IMG/VR virus record: IMGVR_UViG_2737471818_000007
Source: a virus
Lineage: Duplodnaviria; Heunggongvirae; Uroviricota; Caudoviricetes
Direction: 5' to 3' (one strand)
Length of the DNA stretch: 47,226 nt
Shown: positions 25,055 to 34,986 of the stretch, piece after piece
Layout of the letters: every line of letters begins with the position of its first letter
Numbering within the stretch: position 1 is the first letter of the stretch
Notes under the pieces: generated by a model
Seen by the model: the letters and a program-made list of their open reading frames with translations, nothing else
The model's database searches: none
Told to the model about the DNA's origin: nothing
Program-made: the position numbers and the translations under genes

Positions 25055-25600
25055 CTACACCACCACGCGCTCTTTCATCCAGCCATACACGAACGATTCA
25101 TTAGCCTCACGTTTTTCTGCCAGTTCAAGGTAGCGATCTCCCTGCGTACAGTTTAGCGCTGTCAGAATCACCAACTCACCATCCCTGCCACGTTTTGACA
25201 AATAGGCGCGTAACGCATTAATGGTACGTGGGCCGATACAACCATCTGCATCAATGTCCGGATACAACTCTCCTTTCTGGTTAAATACATTAAGCCAGCG
25301 CTGAAGCATTCTGGATGCCACTGACGGCCCCATGTTTACGCCGGTATCACACAATTCAGCAGCGATCTCCGGAGACAGGCTCGCAACCTTGTGAAAACGT
25401 GGTCCGTACCAGTAGTCCGCTTCAAGAATTTCGAGGGCCTGCCCACGCGTCAGGTCACGAATATCCCCCTGATAACCGTGTGCACGGGCAACTTTTCCAG
25501 TAATGCCCCATTTAGTCGGACCACCTTTATCATCAGGGTGGTTGACGTAGCCGCCCTCTTTGCCAAGAACAGCATCAAAAATTTCATCTTTCGACTTCAT
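25055..25600 (-). CDS. endolysin, GH108-type lysozyme with peptidoglycan-binding domain
   Basis: Track ORF begins at GTG 25648; ATG at 25600 gives MKSKDEIFDAVLGKEGGYVNHPDDKGGPTKWGIT, the GH108 N-terminal signature; starts right after the stop of the upstream membrane ORF. Confidence 0.8.
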   Translation of the reverse strand: MKSKDEIFDAVLGKEGGYVNHPDDKGGPTKWGITGKVARAHGYQGDIRDLTRGQALEILEADYWYGPRFHKVASLSPEIAAELCDTGVNMGPSVASRMLQRWLNVFNQKGELYPDIDADGCIGPRTINALRAYLSKRGRDGELVILTALNCTQGDRYLELAEKREANESFVYGWMKERVVV

Positions 25601-25601
25601 C

Positions 25602-25880
25602 TCAGCGCCTTCGTAATACAAAGATTTTTGAAACGTTCCCACGAGCACGAACCACCAGCACGCAGAACAGCAGGTTAAAAAACACTTCCAGCCAGCCCGT
25701 TGCTAACGGGCGACCACACAGATAGCTGAGGGGCGCAAAGGCATACAGCAACATCAGCAGCCAGGCCAGCCACGACATCAGCGGTTTATGTCTCGACTCA
25801 CCACGACGATAAAAAAAGAGCGTCAGCACGATAACCGTGCTTAACACCATATTCAGTAATCCGGGAAGGTTACTTAACAT
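25602..25880 (-). CDS. lysis-cassette membrane protein (second holin-like protein)
   Basis: Track ORF begins at GTG 25892; ATG at 25880 preceded by GGAGG; ~92 aa with two or three hydrophobic helices; sits between holin and endolysin. Confidence 0.6.
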   Translation of the reverse strand: MLSNLPGLLNMVLSTVIVLTLFFYRRGESRHKPLMSWLAWLLMLLYAFAPLSYLCGRPLATGWLEVFFNLLFCVLVVRARGNVSKIFVLRRR

Positions 25881-26259
25881 TACCGCCTCCACCCCGCAGA
25901 CGGGAGAACAGCCCAGATACCAGCGATGCGATATCCTGCTGGTGGATGAATGATAGAATCTTCACCGACACCACCGATACCAGTACCGCACAAAGCGCGT
26001 CGAGAGATGTGCTGTGGAGATTCAGTTTTTCAGCCAAGTAAGACGCCATCACATCCGCCCCCAGCACGCCAACAATGAACGACACCAGAAAATGCGCTGC
26101 CACACGCCAGACAGAAATCTTCTGTGGTATCGTGGCCACAAACAGCGCCCCTGCGAATGCACCAAACACAATCCCGAAATCCGTTCCGGTAAACAGCCCG
26201 AATACCGTCGCCCCGCCGAGCGCCGCAGCCGTGCCGGAACCGGATAAGGGTTCAGACAT
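25870..26259 (-). CDS. putative holin
   Basis: Track ORF 25870..26472 trimmed to the ATG at 26259 preceded by AGGAGA; 129 aa, Gly/Ala-rich transmembrane segments; first gene after the terminator-rich leader. Confidence 0.65.
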   Translation of the reverse strand: MSEPLSGSGTAAALGGATVFGLFTGTDFGIVFGAFAGALFVATIPQKISVWRVAAHFLVSFIVGVLGADVMASYLAEKLNLHSTSLDALCAVLVSVVSVKILSFIHQQDIASLVSGLFSRLRGGGGNVK

Positions 26260-26275
26260 ACTTTTTCTCCTGTAA

Positions 26276-26308
26276 ATAAAAAAGGGCCTCTGTCGGCCCG
26301 TAAAAAAA
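26276..26308 (-). terminator. rho-independent terminator just upstream of the holin (tR'-like)
   Basis: Minus strand GGGCCGACAGAGGCCC followed by TTTTTTATTT, about 20 nt before the holin RBS. Confidence 0.6.
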
Positions 26309-26426
26309 CACCCCATCAAAGGCACCCGCAGATGCCTTTTGTGTGGTGTTATCTGGTGTTTTCTGATGTGATGTGTACAGGACACAGATGTGAAAAAGGT
26401 CCGCCGGTACGAACCCTGTGTATGAA

Positions 26427-26455
26427 TAAAAAAATGCCCGTCAGGAGACGGGCCA
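26427..26455 (-). terminator. rho-independent terminator in the late leader
   Basis: Minus strand GCCCGTCTCCTGACGGGC followed by ATTTTTTT. Confidence 0.6.
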
Positions 26456-26508
26456 ACGCATTCATCATGCAAGAGTTAAGCAGGATTACTTGTATCGAAT
26501 TATCGGTA

Positions 26509-26583
26509 TCAGAATGAGTCGTCAACCTGCAACCGCAATTCTGACGAATCGTAGGTTCCGGTACAGGTGACGACTCATTCTGA
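26509..26583. repeat. large inverted repeat (stem ~20 bp, loop ~32 nt)
   Basis: ATCAGAATGAGTCGTCAACCTG ... CAGGTGACGACTCATTCTGAT. Confidence 0.7.
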
Positions 26584-26656
26584 TAACGCATACCATTAAC
26601 AATGTAAAAAACCAGCAAGCCTCAAATAAATTAGCATAATTAAAATCTCAGAATAC

Positions 26657-26762
26657 GATGCCTGATGCATTATCGGGATAAAGCATAATTACCTGATAAA
26701 TGAAATGCCTGCATTGCAAAGATCCTCACCAATAACCATGCTTTATCCCGATAAGGCATCAC
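26657..26762. repeat. 21-bp inverted repeats flanking a ~50-bp spacer
   Basis: TGCATTATCGGGATAAAGCAT ... ATGCTTTATCCCGATAAGGCA (20 of 21 match). Confidence 0.65.
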
Positions 26763-27056
26763 ATAATTAAATATGTTGCATTAAGATGACGTTCCGCCCC
26801 ATAACACCCTGATATTCACCTAACTCGCCATGAAATCAGAACGCCATCTGAATACACAGAAAAAAGCTGGCTTTACACCACCCTGCATGTGAACGCAGAA
26901 CTCACCCCACCACGTGCTTTCGCAACCAGCACACAATCTGTGTCAAAAACTGGCAGATGAGCAATGAAACTGCCAGTGCGGTCACCTGTCTTAGTTCGCA
27001 TCGCTAATTCTGCGTGATAACAAGCTTTTCGTTCTTATCTTATTGTGCACTCCTGG

Positions 27057-28106
27057 TTAACCCGCCTGCTCCATTATTTCACCAACGGTCTGTTCAAAAC
27101 GTTCTTTTTCCAGTTCCACGCCAGTCGCCCTGCGTCCCAGTGACAGTGCCGCTTTTATTGTCGCCCCCGACCCCATAAAAAAATCGGCAACCAAATCACC
27201 GGGGCGACTGCTGGCCTCAATTATCTGCCGCAACATATCGGCTGGTTTTTCACAGGGATGTTTGCCCGGATAATACTGCACGGGCTTGTGCGTCCAGACA
27301 TCCGTATACGGAACGGCAACTGATACGGAAAAATAACGCCGCAGGGATTTGTACTCCTTCAGCAGGCTGGCATATTGCCGGTTCAGTTCACTGTATGTGC
27401 TGACCAGCTGGTGGTGTGGCTTTTCCAGTTCCCCGCGTTGATGTTTTTCTGCTGCAACACGCGCAAACAACGCCTGTAATTTCAGATAATCACCTTCGTT
27501 CGGCAACTGCCACTGACTGATACCAAACCAGTGCGAAGCCATGTTTTTCTTTCCGGTGGCTTCCGCTATCTGTTTTGACGTTATTCCCAGTGATTCACGC
27601 GCATCACGAAAGTAAGAAATCAGCGGGGCCATGACGTGCTGTTTTAGCTCGCTCCCCTTTGCCGCATAGCCGTCATTTTTGGGCCGGTATGGCCCCTGAT
27701 AATGTTCTGCAAACAGAATGCGTTCTGTTGCCGGGAAATACGCCCGCAGGCTTTCCTTGTTGCATCCGTTCCAGCGTCCGGACGGCTTCGCCCAGATAAT
27801 GTGGTTCAGCACATTAAAGCGCTCACGCATCATGATTTCGATATCAGATGCCAGGCGATGACCACAGAACAGGTAGAGACTTCCGGCAGGTTTCAGTACC
27901 CGCCAGAACTGCGCCAGACACTGTTCCAGCCATTTCAGGTAATCATCGTCGCCCTTCCACTGGTTATCCCAGCCCTCGGGCTTCACTTTAAAGTATGGCG
28001 GGTCTGTGACTATCAGATCGACTGAGTTTTCCGGTAAGGTCTGGATAAATTCCAGGCAATCAGCGTTGATTAACTCACAACTGGATATTTTTACAGTATT
28101 AACCAT
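27057..28106 (-). CDS. DNA methyltransferase, beta-class N6-adenine/N4-cytosine type
   Basis: 349-aa ORF with ATG at 28106; motif IV DPPY near the N-terminus (LIVTDPPYF) and motif I FxGxG near the C-terminus (DFFMGSGAT). Confidence 0.8.
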   Translation of the reverse strand: MVNTVKISSCELINADCLEFIQTLPENSVDLIVTDPPYFKVKPEGWDNQWKGDDDYLKWLEQCLAQFWRVLKPAGSLYLFCGHRLASDIEIMMRERFNVLNHIIWAKPSGRWNGCNKESLRAYFPATERILFAEHYQGPYRPKNDGYAAKGSELKQHVMAPLISYFRDARESLGITSKQIAEATGKKNMASHWFGISQWQLPNEGDYLKLQALFARVAAEKHQRGELEKPHHQLVSTYSELNRQYASLLKEYKSLRRYFSVSVAVPYTDVWTHKPVQYYPGKHPCEKPADMLRQIIEASSRPGDLVADFFMGSGATIKAALSLGRRATGVELEKERFEQTVGEIMEQAG

Positions 28107-28256
28107 AGATCAATAAGCACTTCTCTGATAGGCTCATACCGCTTTTGCGCAAAGCAGATGGGCCTGAGGTTTGCTTGTGACCCCAAAGCATGAGCAGATG
28201 GCTGGCAGGTGCCGCTAACACCCACCAGCCGCCCATTACCACAAATTAAAAAGCCT

Positions 28257-28454
28257 TCACTGCGGAAGGCGTCTGTAACAACCGAACTGATAATCTGCCA
28301 GACCCGCCATAACAAGCTGAGTCAGTATTAACTGGCAGCGTTCGCGTGAAAGGTAAGTATTCTGCGCAATTTCCCCGACGGTCGCCGGTTCGGTGACGCG
28401 TAATTCATTAAAAACCACTCTGGCGGTTTCGGTCATATCCTGCTGTTTTAGCAT
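28257..28454 (-). CDS. small putative winged-helix DNA-binding protein
   Basis: Track ORF 28257..28634 trimmed to the ATG at 28454 (MLKQQDMTETARVVFNELRVTEPATVGEIAQNTYLSRERCQLILTQLV..., 65 aa); upstream of the methyltransferase on the same strand; function inferred only. Confidence 0.45.
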   Translation of the reverse strand: MLKQQDMTETARVVFNELRVTEPATVGEIAQNTYLSRERCQLILTQLVMAGLADYQFGCYRRLPQ

Positions 28455-28576
28455 GTCTTTTTCCCTTTTCCGGTTAACGTGACATACCAATAACTCTTGT
28501 CGAAAAAGCCAGCAAGCTGAAAGACTGGTATTCGTAACCACCAGCGCGTTTAACGTACTGTACCACTTTTCGGGCA

Positions 28577-28603
28577 CAAAAAACCCGCTCGGCGGCGGGT
28601 TTA
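28577..28603 (-). terminator. putative rho-independent terminator
   Basis: Minus strand AACCCGCCGCCGAGCGGGTT followed by TTTTTGTG. Confidence 0.4.
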
Positions 28604-28713
28604 GGCTGTGTGGCGAAGCGACTATCCTTAACACAATACAATAGTTTTTGCGTACGCGTTAATGATTTTGTAAAATTAATTGATGGGTTGATTTTAAAAC
28701 AAGGATATATTAT

Positions 28714-30117
28714 ATGGCTCGTAAAGATTTCACTCAGCAAATAGACATTCCAATTCAAAATATCCTCCTCGATACTGAAAATGCCAGAATCCGCGCAGGT
28801 AGAGATCAAAACAACTGCATTTCAAGGATATTGCGTAAAGAAAACCAGATGCTTGTATTGATGGAGGATATTGCAGAAAACGGACTTACAACCATGCCCA
28901 TATTGGTTATGCCTCACTCAGAAGGTAAATGGGTAGTTAAAGATGGTAATAGACGAATAACAGCTTTAAAACTATTAAATAACCCAGATAGTTGCCCGGA
29001 ACCACATTTAATTCCGAAAATAAAAAAAATAAAAGAAAAATATCATGACAACATACCTACTACTGTTGACTGTTTATCAAGTGACAATTTTGAAGCAGTA
29101 TTTAAAGAGATAATAGCAAGGCATTCTGGAGCACGTAATGGTGCTGGTCAATATGACTGGTTTGCATATATGCGAACAATTTATCTATTAAATAATGGAC
29201 ATCCAACTGATTATAAAAGAGCTGGTCAATATATGTGTTGGGCTGAACAAGAAGGCATTGATGTAGATGATGATTTCCCAATCACTAGTGTAGCCAGATT
29301 CTTTACTAGAGATAATCTTCTATTGTTAGGATTTGAAGTGGAAAATGATAAATTGAAGCCAATACTCTCAAAAGAAAAAATAATAAAAATGGCCTCAAAA
29401 ATTAATAGCGACTTTTCTTCAAAAATAGTTGATGTTAACACCGTCTTTAATCCTAGCGATGCAAAGAAATATCTTTGCTCGGTAAGAAAATATGCAGGAA
29501 TAATAGATGATTTTGCTTACAATAGTGATGACACAGAACAAGAAAATAATAAAAAAGAAGAAACAAATAAATGTTCCTCTCCATCTGAAGTGGATAACAA
29601 TAATGCGCAATCAGATAGTAAGAGTGACGCACCTGTACTACTAAAAAAACACGCAGGTAGAGGAGGTACACCTAAAAAAATACCAGCAGAGCGAAATAAA
29701 ATTTTTGGTAGAGGAAAGCCTGGAATTACTATTCCTGAAAATGAGACTAAAATAAGAACTATAATCTCAGAACTTAGGCAATTAGATGTAAAAAAAACAA
29801 CTCTTGCAACTGCATTTCTTCTTCGGGCACTGCTGGAGTTAAGTGATAAAGAATATAGAACAATTAACAAGTTGCAAGATAAAAAAAGCTTAGCTAAAAA
29901 TATTGCTAATAGCGCAGATCATATGTTGAAAAATAATCTAATCACTGACTCAGAACACCATATAATATCAGCTTATACTCGCGGCGAGCAAGGAACTGTG
30001 CACATTGAAACTTTACAAAAATTAATTCACAGAGAGACACATCACCCAGATTATATCTCAATTAATGTTTTTTGGGACAATATAGGTTGTTTTGTTCGAG
30101 CTTGTTGGAAAGATTAA
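28714..30117 (+). CDS. ParB/Srx-fold (DGxRR motif) N-terminal domain protein, unknown function; candidate nuclease or defence protein
   Basis: 467-aa ORF with ATG at 28714; N-terminus has ParB-like motifs (ILLDTENARIR; GLTTMPILVMP; VVKDGNRRITALKLL); Lys-rich low-complexity linker; His-rich C-terminal domain; very AT-rich. Confidence 0.65.
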   Translation: MARKDFTQQIDIPIQNILLDTENARIRAGRDQNNCISRILRKENQMLVLMEDIAENGLTTMPILVMPHSEGKWVVKDGNRRITALKLLNNPDSCPEPHLIPKIKKIKEKYHDNIPTTVDCLSSDNFEAVFKEIIARHSGARNGAGQYDWFAYMRTIYLLNNGHPTDYKRAGQYMCWAEQEGIDVDDDFPITSVARFFTRDNLLLLGFEVENDKLKPILSKEKIIKMASKINSDFSSKIVDVNTVFNPSDAKKYLCSVRKYAGIIDDFAYNSDDTEQENNKKEETNKCSSPSEVDNNNAQSDSKSDAPVLLKKHAGRGGTPKKIPAERNKIFGRGKPGITIPENETKIRTIISELRQLDVKKTTLATAFLLRALLELSDKEYRTINKLQDKKSLAKNIANSADHMLKNNLITDSEHHIISAYTRGEQGTVHIETLQKLIHRETHHPDYISINVFWDNIGCFVRACWKD

Positions 30118-30163
30118 AATAATATACCACGCTGGACTAATTTATTAGTCCAGCGTACAGTTT

Positions 30164-31018
30164 TCATTTCTTCTTCATAGAGGGAGTGCTATGAATATTT
30201 AAATTTTTATATACCATAAGTTCTGTAACTCTTGGCCTTGTCAAATGAGTTGAGTAATGTAAAGAAAACTCCACAATTTTTTCGTCTTTATATAACTTCC
30301 TGATTTCTTCACAATTATCATATGTAACAATTATCGGAGTGGAAATATCCTTAACCTTTTCAGAAATTAATTTATGATCATGAGGTTTATAATGATTTCT
30401 ATAAAGCTGGCTACCTTTTTCATAATATGGAGGATCAAGATAAATTAGAGATTTTTTTGGTAGTGTATTTTTTATACTACCAATCAACTCACAGGCATCC
30501 AAATTATAAAGATCAATAAATTTTTTCATTCCACCTATTTTTTTTACTCTTTCACATAGTTTCTTCTTATTATACCTAGCATCAATCTTATATTTACCAC
30601 TCTGTTCTTTTCCTCCTATAACCCCACCTGATAAGATTCCAGAACGATTGGTTCGATTGAGAAAAAACGTAGCAAAACCAATAGATAAAATATCATGTTT
30701 AGTATAATTGTTTATTACATCTTTTTGCTTATACCAATTATCCATTGTTACTTCTGTTTCATTTATCAATGAAATAAATTTATCATTCTCATTTAACACT
30801 GACCACCAAAATGAGTAAACAACAGGATCCAAATCATTAATAATGACATGATCTACATATCCATGCATTAGCAAATACAATGCAGCTCCTGCGCCGCCAG
30901 CATATGGCTCCACATAATACCCACCACTAATTCCGTTATACCTCAGCAGTTCTGATATCCAAGGCCCCATCCTCCCTTTTCCACCGGGATAACGTAATGG
31001 GGTAAAAAATGTAGTCAT
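30164..31018 (-). CDS. DNA adenine methyltransferase, D12 (Dam-like) class
   Basis: Track ORF 30164..31054 trimmed to the ATG at 31018 (MTTFFTPLRYPGGKGRM..); motifs YPGGK, VEPYAGGAG, FLNRTNRSG, YLDPPYY parallel E. coli Dam; AT-rich; convergent with the ParB-like gene. Confidence 0.8.
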   Translation of the reverse strand: MTTFFTPLRYPGGKGRMGPWISELLRYNGISGGYYVEPYAGGAGAALYLLMHGYVDHVIINDLDPVVYSFWWSVLNENDKFISLINETEVTMDNWYKQKDVINNYTKHDILSIGFATFFLNRTNRSGILSGGVIGGKEQSGKYKIDARYNKKKLCERVKKIGGMKKFIDLYNLDACELIGSIKNTLPKKSLIYLDPPYYEKGSQLYRNHYKPHDHKLISEKVKDISTPIIVTYDNCEEIRKLYKDEKIVEFSLHYSTHLTRPRVTELMVYKNLNIHSTPSMKKK

Positions 31019-31105
31019 GCTGAACCTCATACAAAACCAGGAAATTAAATGCATTTTACCCTAAATCACATCAATTCTAAATAACTAAATTAACAGTATT
31101 AAAAT

Positions 31106-31459
31106 TCAGTTATCTGAAAGTATAAATAGCATCCCATCAACGAACCCCAATGCTGTTTGTAGTTCTTTTCTGATTGTGCCATCTGAACACTTCCGCTTTT
31201 TTGCAATTGTACGGAGAGAAATCCCGATAACAAAGTGAGCAATGATCAGCTCATATTCTTCTGGTTTATATTTCCGCAACCGGGCCACACATCCATCAAT
31301 CATAATTCCTTCATCATCATCGCACTGGAGACGTGACATTTTACCGTGTGGTAGAAGCCCCTTGAAGCCTGCCGCTATCGACTGCCAATCAACACCACTA
31401 TTTTCTGCTGCAGCCCATGCCCCCCAGCGGTCTAAAACCTCATACATATCACGCCCCAT
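31106..31459 (-). CDS. Q: late-gene antiterminator Q (QuuD / phage 82 Q family)
   Basis: Track ORF trimmed to the ATG at 31459 preceded by AGGTG; ..LDRWGAWAA..SIAAGFKGL..CDDDEGIMIDGCVARL.. resembles DLP12 QuuD (recalled). Confidence 0.75.
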   Translation of the reverse strand: MGRDMYEVLDRWGAWAAAENSGVDWQSIAAGFKGLLPHGKMSRLQCDDDEGIMIDGCVARLRKYKPEEYELIIAHFVIGISLRTIAKKRKCSDGTIRKELQTALGFVDGMLFILSDN

Positions 31460-31820
31460 TACTAACACCTCTAATTTCGCAAATCTTCACGCCCAGCCGA
31501 CCACCAGGAACGGGCTGACCGCGCACAATATTAATTTCATCAAACTGCTCGTCGTCGATAAGCAGTCCCGCATGCGTCAGCGCATCCAGCGGTGCTTTCA
31601 GGATATTGTCCAGATCACGACGGCGCTTATCCGGTGGCTCTGCAATAATCTTTATCGCCAGCCTTCCGGACAGGTTTAATTTCAGCCGCTGCTGGCAAAC
31701 AATAAGCGCCACATCCCGGCGATAACGCTCACCGGCTTTTGATACAAAATATGTGCTGCCACGACGTCGCCAGTAGGTGTTCACCGTTGGCGGGTAAGGC
31801 AAAACAAACTCTATACGCAT
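31449..31820 (-). CDS. rusA: RusA Holliday-junction resolvase
   Basis: 123-aa ORF; PPTVNTYWRRRG..RRRDLDNILKAPLDALT.. matches RusA-family motifs. Confidence 0.85.
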   Translation of the reverse strand: MRIEFVLPYPPTVNTYWRRRGSTYFVSKAGERYRRDVALIVCQQRLKLNLSGRLAIKIIAEPPDKRRRDLDNILKAPLDALTHAGLLIDDEQFDEINIVRGQPVPGGRLGVKICEIRGVSNGA

Positions 31821-31832
31821 CCGTAACCTCTT

Positions 31833-32882
31833 TTACCCGAGCACGCCGGTTGCAAAGGCGTGATCAAGAAAACGAAAAATTAAATCAACCTGAGAACCAT
31901 GCTTTTCTTCGAACGCCAGCAGATCCGCATGAAGTTCGTTGTGATGTTCCGGGCACAACGGTAGCGTGAAAATATCGTGGGCTTTTGTTCCCATCCCTCC
32001 CTGACCGTGACCAATCAGGTGATGGGGATCGTCGGCTGGCTTACCACAACACGCACACGGCTGTGTCTTTACCCAGCGCGTGTATTTCTTATTAACCCAA
32101 CGGCGACGTTTAGGTCGTTTCATGAAAGATTCCGGAGACTCCGGATCAACGGCAATGCTGACCACCGTCTTTTCCTGTGGTGGGTTTTGTTGCTGATGGA
32201 TGTGAGGCAGTAGTGCAATATTTTTTGTGCGCTGCTTCAGTATGCTGGTGGCTGTCTGCTCTCCCGGTATGATGTCGCTCTCGCGGTACACAGAGCGGAT
32301 TTTTTCCGCACGTAACCCCAGAGAACGACGTAATACTACCTCCGGTAGTGCGTCCGCTACCTGATTACAGACCGCCCACCAGGATAATTCAGCCAGCGAT
32401 AATTCCCGCTCCTGTGTACCGCTTATTGCGTGACGTATGACGTCAATCATCCAGGCTGTCAGATTTTGTTGAGCAAGCTGCCCGAGTGATTCGGAGGTCT
32501 GGTCACGCAGCTGGTTGTCACAGTGCCAGCACAACACCATTGCGCCGGTACCGTAACGATGTATGACGGTTTCACTATGGTGATAGTCTCCATGAGGCCA
32601 CTGGCAGGATTTAACGTGGCGTAACAGCCAGTCAGACAGTGCACCAGTGCCACCAGCAGCACGAATCACCCGCTCATCGCTGAAAAATGGCAGTAATGAT
32701 TTATCTTCCGCCAGCGGCTGGCGAACGGCAGGAACGACACCGGGCGGCAGATTGCGCATGCTTTTCGGTTCAGGCTCCACCAGCACACGCCCCTGCATAA
32801 ACAAAGGCATCGCATCAGGACCGGGCCTGAAAAGTACAATCCCCAGACGGTGAGCAATTTCAGGAGTCACTAATACCCGCAC
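31833..32882 (-). CDS. DUF968 / HNH-motif protein (YdfU-like)
   Basis: 349-aa ORF (GTG start after GGAGGT); C-terminus has a Cys/His HNH-like motif (CACCGKPADDPHHLIGHGQGG..CPEHHNELH); Qin YdfU-like from memory. Confidence 0.7.
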   Translation of the reverse strand: MRVLVTPEIAHRLGIVLFRPGPDAMPLFMQGRVLVEPEPKSMRNLPPGVVPAVRQPLAEDKSLLPFFSDERVIRAAGGTGALSDWLLRHVKSCQWPHGDYHHSETVIHRYGTGAMVLCWHCDNQLRDQTSESLGQLAQQNLTAWMIDVIRHAISGTQERELSLAELSWWAVCNQVADALPEVVLRRSLGLRAEKIRSVYRESDIIPGEQTATSILKQRTKNIALLPHIHQQQNPPQEKTVVSIAVDPESPESFMKRPKRRRWVNKKYTRWVKTQPCACCGKPADDPHHLIGHGQGGMGTKAHDIFTLPLCPEHHNELHADLLAFEEKHGSQVDLIFRFLDHAFATGVLG

Positions 32883-34576: not shown

Positions 34577-34732
34577 TTACTCCTCAGATTCGTAAGCTGT
34601 GAAGACAGCGACCTCCGTCTGGCCGGTTCGGATTCGTACCTCGCAGAGGTCTTTCCTCGTTACCAGTGCCGTCACTATGACGGTTAAACAGATGACGATC
34701 AGGACGATTAACATCGCCTTTTGCTGCTTCAT
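34577..34732 (-). CDS. hok: Hok/Gef-family type I toxin
   Basis: 51-aa ORF MKQQKAMLIVLIVICLTVIVTALVTRKDLCEVRIRTGQTEVAVFTAYESEE, classic Hok; below the ORF-track size cutoff. Confidence 0.85.
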   Translation of the reverse strand: MKQQKAMLIVLIVICLTVIVTALVTRKDLCEVRIRTGQTEVAVFTAYESEE

Positions 34733-34790
34733 AGCCTGCTTCTCCTTGACCTTTCGGTCCGTAAGAGGCTAACCTACATGTGTCTAGCAT
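34584..34790 (-). CDS. mok: Mok-like overlapping reading frame (translational coupling for hok)
   Basis: 68-aa ORF in another frame, starting upstream of hok and ending inside it, as in the R1 hok/mok/sok locus. Confidence 0.55.
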   Translation of the reverse strand: MLDTCRLASYGPKGQGEAGYEAAKGDVNRPDRHLFNRHSDGTGNEERPLRGTNPNRPDGGRCLHSLRI

Positions 34791-34986
34791 GAAATTGGCC
34801 TCAGATTAATGTTAAGCGTCTTGCAGGACGCGTAATGTTAACTAGGGCTTTTCTCTATCTGCCTTTGGTGTTCATGCCTGAGGCAGATAGCCTCAAGCAC
34901 CCGCAGCAATTCTACTTAAGTTAGATAAGCTTTTCTATGGTATTCTCTCAGCGTCCCGTAAATACAGTCTCGGCTCATCATTTTTA

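Follow-up and report, generated by a model that had tools for sequence, protein, structure and literature searches.

The DNA examined here is the IMG/VR virus record IMGVR_UViG_2737471818_000007 (Duplodnaviria; Heunggongvirae; Uroviricota; Caudoviricetes), a stretch of 47,226 nucleotides hereafter called the window, and the question addressed is where its late promoter, pR′, lies relative to the gene of the late antiterminator Q and to the lysis genes. As a sequence-only reading of the window had pointed out, Q ends at 31106 and the holin gene starts at 26259, with ~4.8 kb (4846 bp) between them. That reading proposed two layouts: pR′ either follows Q directly, so that all the genes of the gap are made late, or lies in the non-coding region at 26.4–27.0 kb, so that those genes are transcribed independently. 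All the features described are present, and comparison with related phages resolves the ambiguity with high confidence. Neither option appears correct as stated: pR′, the Q-loading site and the first terminator very probably form a single cassette at 28575–28663 on the − strand, 2.4 kb downstream of Q, and a promoter there (at ~28.63 kb) would split the intervening genes into two sets.

The phage genes of the region are read on the − strand, and the main features from upstream of Q to the first lysis gene are as follows:

31833–32882, − strand: DUF968 gene, upstream of RusA
31449–31820, − strand: RusA gene, its stop overlapped by the probable Q start codon (ATG at 31459)
31106–31468, − strand: open reading frame (ORF) of the late antiterminator Q, Q21/Q933W family (PF06530), probable ATG at 31459
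30164–31054, − strand: ORF of a D12 N6-adenine methyltransferase, Dam-like, component B of a PD-Lambda-5 system (PF02086, PADLOC), likely start ATG at 31018
28714–30117, + strand: 467-aa ORF with a ParB/Srx-like N-terminal domain, component A of PD-Lambda-5 (PADLOC; RefSeq name in the O121 homologue)
28257–28454, − strand: 65-aa winged-helix (TrmB-like) ORF (weak PF01978 match; RefSeq annotation in relatives)
27057–28106, − strand: N6_N4 (beta-class) DNA methyltransferase (PF01555, E = 1e-43)
25870–26259, − strand: ORF of the holin, first lysis gene (PF16931), ATG at 26259

The GC content falls to 0.32–0.33 at 29–31 kb, compared with ~0.5 on both sides, and no long ORF occurs in the ~800 bp that lead from the N6_N4 methyltransferase gene to the holin.

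By its sequence, the Q protein belongs to the Q21/Q933W family and not to the phage 82 type with which a comparison had been suggested. It matches PF06530 (E = 9.7e-45, profile positions 2–113 of 118), a family named Q21/Q933W by Yin et al. (bioRxiv 10.1101/651190), is 44–45% identical to the Q protein of 933W, and shows a weak match to the Q21 structures 6p18/6jnx (E = 1.9e-4, residues 12–90). A Pfam search of the window Q yielded no match to PF06323, the phage 82-type family; a true PF06323 Q, found in prophage L049, scores 2e-83, and the promoter region of that prophage differs from the cassette described here. Related prophages carry Qs of the Q82 family (PF06323) and of the lambda family (PF03589) that are quite unlike the window Q.

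The predicted pR′ cassette

One genome per bacterial species was scanned with the window Q, and 33 loci were retrieved from contigs of Enterobacterales, including Escherichia/Shigella, Klebsiella, Enterobacter, Citrobacter, Serratia, Yersinia, Providencia, Erwinia and other genera. The sequence right after Q showed no conservation among loci whose Qs are 43–50% identical, and for this reason the search was extended further downstream. The cassette found there is made of the following parts, which are listed together with a second hairpin that follows it:

28575–28663, − strand: predicted pR′ cassette, ~90 bp (nhmmer E = 2.5e-25; homology to the pR′ of 933W/Sp5)
28662–28657, − strand: −35-like TTAACG, weak, with an 18-bp spacer to the −10
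28660–28646, − strand: candidate Q-binding element AACGCGTACGCAAAA, in the promoter spacer, tracking the Q clade
28638–28633, − strand: −10 TATTGT, at the TAnnnT position
~28626 (range 28625–28632), − strand: predicted start, transferred from the mapped start of Sp5
28630–28622, − strand: conserved box around the predicted start, window variant TAAGGATAG
28602–28581, − strand: 8-bp hairpin followed by a T-run ending at 28578 (fold); the terminated leader would have ~49 nt
28501–28528, − strand: second, weaker terminator-like hairpin with CTTTTT (fold), conserved in alignments

The cassette lies 2441 bp from Q and ~2.3 kb upstream of the holin. Its consensus reads TAACGCGTACGCAAAAA-N14-TAAGAGTGGTTACTTCGCCACACAGC, followed by a GC-rich hairpin and a T-run. 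The hexamer at positions 8 to 3 bp ahead of the TAAGAG box conforms to the TAnnnT pattern of a −10 in 46 of 47 loci, and T-runs occur 45–59 nt past the box in most of them. The candidate Q-binding element AACGCGTACGCAAAA is unique in the window, even if three mismatches are allowed. The second hairpin (28501–28528) sits in a segment common to phages of all three Q families.

When a cassette profile was run on 49 sources, 48 of them gave exactly one match, always on the Q strand and downstream of Q. The lone miss was a phage with a lambda-family Q, in which the corresponding position is occupied by a lambda-like pR′ (GGTAAATTTGCCCTAACGATGGG). The cassette is hence absent from both examined phages that have a different Q family (the one just mentioned and L049, with its Q82-family Q). 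The distance from the Q stop codon to the cassette is −17 bp in 933W, 5 bp in Stx2_12E129_yecE and 598–2966 bp in the other 45 of 47 loci, and the ORFs found in between are mostly on the opposite strand.

A short element located in the promoter spacer changes with the Q clade, while the cassette outside this element is common to all clades:

Clade A Q (56–100% identical to the window Q), 41 loci: spacer element GCGTACGC, in all
Clade B Q (72–84% identical to each other), L004, L012 and L014: spacer element GCGGTCCGC
933W clade Q (78% identical to each other), 933W (L013) and L005: spacer element TTTACG(T/A)(A/T)CGTAAA
phiP27 Q, L001: spacer element GCGGAATTCC

Co-variation with the Q clade is what would be expected of a Q-binding site, and we infer that the spacer element is a candidate for that role.

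Exchange of modules between related prophages points in the same direction. The Escherichia coli AREA_497 prophage L049 has the backbone of the window, with DUF968 and RusA upstream and a small ORF, a methyltransferase, the 440-bp stretch and the holin downstream. Its Q belongs to the Q82 family and is followed by a 211-bp promoter region of its own, which gave no match to the cassette profile; from the hairpin terminator onward its sequence is again homologous to the window. The same swap pattern is seen in the example with a lambda-family Q. Both swaps suggest that Q and the promoter-proximal sequence are exchanged together, and the unit exchanged in the window would include an insertion of 2.45 kb.

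A link to a mapped promoter is provided by 933W and the Sakai prophage Sp5, where the cassette aligns with the sequence right after Q and the block overlaps the Q stop codon. The start of pR′ in Sp5 was mapped by differential RNA sequencing (dRNA-seq) 258 nt upstream of the 3′ end of tR′, and the pR′ RNA is cut by RNase E at +173, within GU|AUU (Sy et al., PMC7547250). A single start accounts for both numbers on the Sakai sequence, namely the A in TAAGAGTGG (TAAG-A-GTGG), 7 nt past TATCAT: counted from this base, the 258 nt end on the final T of the T-run of tR′, and position +173 falls on the U of GUAUU. Because two independent numbers fit a single start, the published Sakai coordinates appear to differ from those of the current RefSeq version by 142.

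The window and 933W/Sp5 share the Q family, a homologous cassette with a TAAGAGTGG box, a TAnnnT −10, a hairpin and T-run ~45 nt downstream, and the presence of cargo between pR′ and the lysis genes, which in both cases would be read by the antiterminated polymerase; 933W/Sp5 is also the source of the small RNA StxS. The differences are that the 933W cassette lies at −17 bp from the Q stop, overlapping it, against 2441 bp in the window; that its spacer has 16 bp and bears the element TTTACGATCGTAAA, against 18 bp and AACGCGTACGC in the window; and that the window is devoid of stx and tRNA genes. Phage 21 (OL657228; 6P18/6P19) belongs to the same Pfam family and presents the same order of parts: a −35, a Q-binding element in the spacer that abuts the −10, the start, a TAAG-box and a terminator ending near +50. 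In the annotated phage 21 record, all of them, the pause element TAAGCTG included, are found within 95 bp after Q. However, Q21 is distant (E = 2e-4), its promoter directly follows Q, and it binds two directly repeated 8-bp subsites (ATTGAGCA/AATGAGCA), in contrast to the palindrome-like element of the window. The cassette profile found no match in the phage 21 sequence.

Several observations weigh against placing pR′ in the cassette, and they can be summarized as follows:

(i). The −35 is weak (TTAACG, at 18 bp from the −10), and the promoter and terminator scan lists neither the cassette promoter nor the cassette hairpin. In the case of the hairpin, we think that the scan missed it because A/T pairs extend the stem into the T-run.

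(ii). The sigma-dependent pause element lacks a confident assignment. The conserved TAAGAGTGG box (in the window, the variant TAAGGATAG) resembles the TAAGCTG of phage 21. With a start of the 933W type, however, the TAAGAG box straddles +1, while the phage 21 element occupies +2 to +8.

(iii). The −10 region (28633–28643, − strand) is a tandem TATTG-TATTG-T that contains two overlapping TATTGT hexamers, 5 bp apart, one of which fits the geometry of 933W and the other that of phage 21. Use of the hexamer 5 bp upstream, with TAAGGAT at +2 to +8, was considered and ranked second, as a hexamer in that position fits TAnnnT in 27 of 47 loci only, compared with 46 of 47 for the geometry chosen.

(iv). 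A similar strong hairpin with a run of seven Ts is present in 933W/Sp5 at +27 to +47 (L013 3486–3510 / L015 669–693), and despite it the published pR′-tR′ RNA of 933W has 258 nt (PMC7547250). Either most transcripts pass this first hairpin or a short RNA escaped detection.

(v). For the prophage of the window, as for all clade-A Qs, promoter activity is deduced from sequence comparison.

Precedents for a promoter distant from Q do exist. In the DLP12 prophage of E. coli K-12 the cassette (L051 3699–3777) is found 2.86 kb after quuD and ~120 bp before essD. The quuD-nmpC-essD region resembles the window in having a PF06530-family Q, an opposite-strand gene for lysogenic conversion, the same cassette and a holin; it differs in that the cargo is not a defence system but the porin gene nmpC, interrupted by IS5, and in that its Q belongs to the 933W clade, with the element TTTACGTACGTAAA. 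The lc porin gene of phage PA-2 is presumably a comparable case. In mEp390, as in DLP12, the cassette lies directly upstream of the holin, after opposite-strand cargo, and the isolated phages mEp460, phiP27, Stx1_499 and Klebsiella P7641 share with mEp390 the separated layout.

One might argue that the cassette is indeed pR′ but belongs to a defunct module, so that alteration of the Q C-terminus or separation of Q from pR′ has left the prophage defective in late expression. The last ~8 residues of Q are cargo-specific, and lambda Q reportedly acts preferentially in cis. We consider a defect of this kind improbable: a 0.6–3 kb gap between Q and the cassette and a variable Q tail are found in 41 of 41 clade-A loci from many genera, the isolated phages named above have the same layout, and a DLP12 segment with Q, the late promoter and the lysis genes supports a viable 434B hybrid phage (PMC9119081). 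Since isolated phages and the viable hybrid share the layout, the separated arrangement is, by analogy, a functional one and in substance has long been known as a moron site.

The slot between Q and the cassette

The DNA that separates Q from the cassette differs in composition from its surroundings, and its edges can be drawn from breaks in homology:

28673–31125, no strand: inserted low-GC cargo, ~2.45 kb

A related Q gene is carried by 862 of 5426 complete E. coli genomes, and in all but nine of the 862 the similarity to the window ends at 31118–31134, in the last Q codons. The nine exceptions are O121 genomes that are 98.7% identical to the window from Q through the two low-GC genes to position 28460; their late region downstream is different. 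Homology to Stx2 phages free of cargo, such as Stx2_12E129_yecE, starts at 28672, which sets the right edge of the insertion. At the other edge, across the Q genes of L001–L048, the C-terminal ~8 residues of Q vary from one type of cargo to the next, and the Q stop is in some cases overlapped by a cargo gene of the opposite strand. Hence, a recombination junction appears to lie inside the 3′ end of Q, and the 3′ end of the window Q (31106–31135) is part of the cargo junction. The two edges of the cargo bear an imperfect inverted repeat of 21 nt (28680–28700 / 31120–31140, 76% complementary, core TTGATGGG/CCCATCAA), which was considered as a recombination site but is probably a chance occurrence, as other cargos have no such repeat.

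Judged by sequence, the cargo is a horizontally acquired PD-Lambda-5 system composed of a Dam-like methyltransferase and a ParB-like predicted effector. PADLOC identified PD-Lambda-5_B (E = 3e-115) in the D12 methyltransferase and PD-Lambda-5_A (E = 3.5e-74) in the ParB-like protein. The two genes are convergent, 46 bp apart, and the GC content of the methyltransferase gene is ~0.32. Between them lies a hairpin:

30128–30157, no strand: 13-bp hairpin between the convergent PD-Lambda-5 genes, with weak T-runs, likely a bidirectional stop

Vassallo et al. 2022 (PMC9519451) report PD-Lambda-5 as a validated two-gene system with broad protection against phages; in their view it is a prophage-borne, compacted form of a system that combines restriction-modification and abortive infection. 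The window copy resembles the reference system in that both components match and in being prophage-borne and compact; for this copy, defence is a predicted function.

A promoter-like sequence after Q, TTTAGA-17-TAAAAT, had been noted in the sequence-only reading and is indeed present:

TTTAGA 31081–31076, TAAAAT 31058–31053, − strand: promoter-like site (scan), conserved in L017

The promoter prediction called for in that reading was run on 25.5–32 kb. It listed the site, yet its hits were not enriched, with 11 found and 14.5 expected in shuffled sequences, and promoter hexamers alone consequently carry no weight. Conservation is more telling. Locus L017, from a soil metagenome-assembled genome, holds a second PD-Lambda-5 copy in the same slot, in which both hexamers and their spacing are kept while the flanks diverge. 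For this reason, the TTTAGA-17-TAAAAT site is probably the own promoter of the PD-Lambda-5 methyltransferase rather than pR′. No terminator is found between Q and the D12 methyltransferase gene, which has the same orientation, and early transcription of Q should therefore reach this gene as well.

The assumption that the promoter-like sequence right after Q (~31053–31102) is pR′, which would make the whole 4.8 kb late with the D12 methyltransferase as the first late gene, must be weighed against this background. Two promoter-like sites are present there, the pair TTTAGA-17-TAAAAT is kept in the second locus, and pR′ follows Q directly in lambda, 21 and 933W. We nonetheless regard a late promoter at this point as very improbable. 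The site lies within the low-GC defence cargo, which, among the other clade-A loci fetched, is found only in the O121 prophage and in one soil metagenome-assembled genome, and it lacks a copy of the element of the Q clade. In DNA as rich in AT as this, promoter-like hits show no enrichment. A late transcript starting there would traverse the 1.4-kb ParB-like gene in antisense, and in 45 of 47 loci the slot is filled differently, mostly with genes on the opposite strand.

The cargos found in other loci are diverse. They include a 336-aa opposite-strand ORF, a CPBP protease, three opposite-strand ORFs, a Dcm methyltransferase accompanied by HEPN and DUF262 genes, a GIY-YIG protein in phiP27 and a TIR-TM protein in mEp390. 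Matches to defence models were obtained for PD-Lambda-1 (phiP27), TIR-TM (mEp390), an NsnA/PD-T4-2-like gene and an NsnB/AriA-like ATPase, while many other occupants match nothing in Pfam or PADLOC. PADLOC gave no match for the cargos at L006 5377–7484, L004 2338–3348, L021 7367–8840, L025 7365–9585 and L030 7544–8869; those of L006, L004, L021 and L030, together with L038 7368–8381, had no match in Pfam (L038 was scanned against Pfam only, and L025 against PADLOC only). The unmatched cargos are candidates for undescribed functions in defence or lysogenic conversion.

Altogether, the occurrence of unrelated cargos in 45 of 47 loci, the contrast in GC content (0.32 vs ~0.5) and the several matches to defence models identify the gap between Q and pR′, on sequence grounds, as a recurrent insertion slot, a prophage hotspot for moron and defence genes. 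It resembles the defence hotspots of P2-like phages and P4 satellites (Rousset 2022; Vassallo 2022) in being a fixed slot that houses many unrelated genes, often as small low-GC cassettes. It differs from them in that both the phage group and the slot are other ones, and in that here the slot parts a regulator gene from its DNA target. We found no specific description of a Q-pR′ hotspot in the literature.

Downstream genes and the late transcript

The features that separate the N6_N4 methyltransferase from the lysis genes, together with a hairpin that lies upstream of that methyltransferase gene and with the remaining lysis genes, are as follows:

28253–28270, − strand: terminator-like hairpin after the winged-helix ORF (scan)
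26616–27056, − strand: variable non-coding stretch of 440 bp, devoid of tRNA genes, slot of tRNA genes and stx in relatives
26260–26615, − strand: conserved pre-holin leader with two strong terminators, common to phages of other Q clades
26453–26436 and 26299–26284, − strand: strong terminator hairpins before the holin (scan)
25602–25892, − strand: second holin, after the first holin (the families of the holins and endolysin are PF16931, PF05449 and PF05838/PF09374)
25055–25648, − strand: GH108 endolysin, after the second holin (PF05838/PF09374)

The pair formed by the winged-helix ORF and the N6_N4 methyltransferase precedes the tRNA genes and stx in phiP27, Stx2_12E129 and Stx2_EH1910. Because the same pair stands between the cassette and tRNA/stx in these Shiga toxin (Stx) phages, both genes are likely to be late genes. 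The sequence-only reading had raised the possibility that the methyltransferases of the gap are made late and modify progeny DNA. The idea is plausible for the N6_N4 enzyme, whose gene is downstream of the predicted pR′; it does not extend to the D12 enzyme, encoded upstream.

Two blocks make up the pre-holin region. The segment 26260–26615 is 96–97% identical in L004 and L005, whose Qs belong to other clades, and the segment 26600–27060 is common to L049, a phage with a Q82-family Q. As 26260–27060 is common to phages with other Qs, neither block can hold a Q-specific site. The two strong terminators noted in the sequence-only reading are confirmed just upstream of the holin, and their presence there fits a long antiterminated transcript. 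Placing pR′ in the non-coding 26.3–27.0 kb before the holin, with all four cargo genes independent of Q, is the least probable of the layouts and barely credible: although this ~800-bp stretch is non-coding, has strong terminators and adjoins the lysis genes, and the cassette adjoins the holin in mEp390 and DLP12, the stretch has neither a cassette match nor the element of the Q clade, the scan lists no − strand promoter-like site in 26260–27056, and its two blocks are those shared with the clade B and C Q phages and with the Q82-family phage.

Some further observations concern the non-coding DNA. The stretch 26616–27056 is a second variable slot, where relatives carry tRNA-Gly or tRNAs together with stx; over 80% of the 440-bp stretch of the window is covered in 3 of 5426 E. 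coli genomes only. ARAGORN detected no tRNA in the window; the tRNA genes present in relatives between the methyltransferase and holin genes are hence truly absent here and were not overlooked. At 26424–26511 (− strand), sub-threshold matches to AgvB and STnc100 end at the 26436–26453 terminator; the segment is 96–97% conserved in L004 and L005, is preceded by TTGACG-17-TAATTC, and may represent either a small RNA of the prophage or simply a terminator. Rfam scans of 26.2–31.2 kb, both at gathering level and permissive, detected no known RNA family; the permissive scan gave only sub-threshold matches to isrK, AgvB and STnc100, mainly driven by terminators. Elsewhere in the window, gathering-level matches were obtained for an IS009 RNA (41–239, − strand) and the sok antitoxin RNA (34730–34902, − strand), the latter belonging to a hok/sok module of the early prophage region.

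If pR′ lies in the cassette, the following sequence of events is expected. Q would be made from the early operon and diffuse to the distant cassette. Once bound to AACGCGTACGC in the spacer of the promoter, it would be loaded onto an RNA polymerase that has started near 28626. The loaded polymerase would resist the hairpin at about +28 to +49 and then pass the hairpins at 28528–28501, 28270–28253, 26453–26436 and 26299–26284. The predicted late transcript would begin with the 65-aa winged-helix ORF, its first gene, and the N6_N4 methyltransferase gene and extend into the lysis genes. PD-Lambda-5, located upstream of pR′, would remain outside the unit antiterminated by Q: its methyltransferase would be transcribed from its own probable promoter and could be reached by read-through from Q as well, and its ParB-like predicted effector would be transcribed against the direction of the phage genes.

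Model phages habitually have pR′ right after Q, but the mechanism does not require this position, and the case described here is one of ordinary phage mosaicism, with a defence moron in a recurrent slot and no new mechanism. A broader proposition, to which we would grant an even chance, is that in one Enterobacterales-wide clade Q is obligatorily parted from its loading site by a 0.6–3 kb defence slot insulated from late transcription, that many occupants of the slot are undescribed defence systems, and that the spacer elements constitute a specificity code for Q binding in four clades.

If the cassette is pR′, the N6_N4 methyltransferase would be under Q control and PD-Lambda-5 would not, a distinction that determines at what time each methyltransferase is able to act on phage DNA. 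For phages with a Q of the clade found in the window, annotation cannot assume that pR′ directly follows Q. The short conserved cassette may serve as a practical marker for late promoters, and in Stx phages it would show where the toxin transcript begins. Co-variation of the spacer element with the Q clade supplies candidate Q-binding sites for the 933W family that are amenable to direct testing, and the gap between Q and pR′ would be a compact place in which to look for uncharacterised defence genes.

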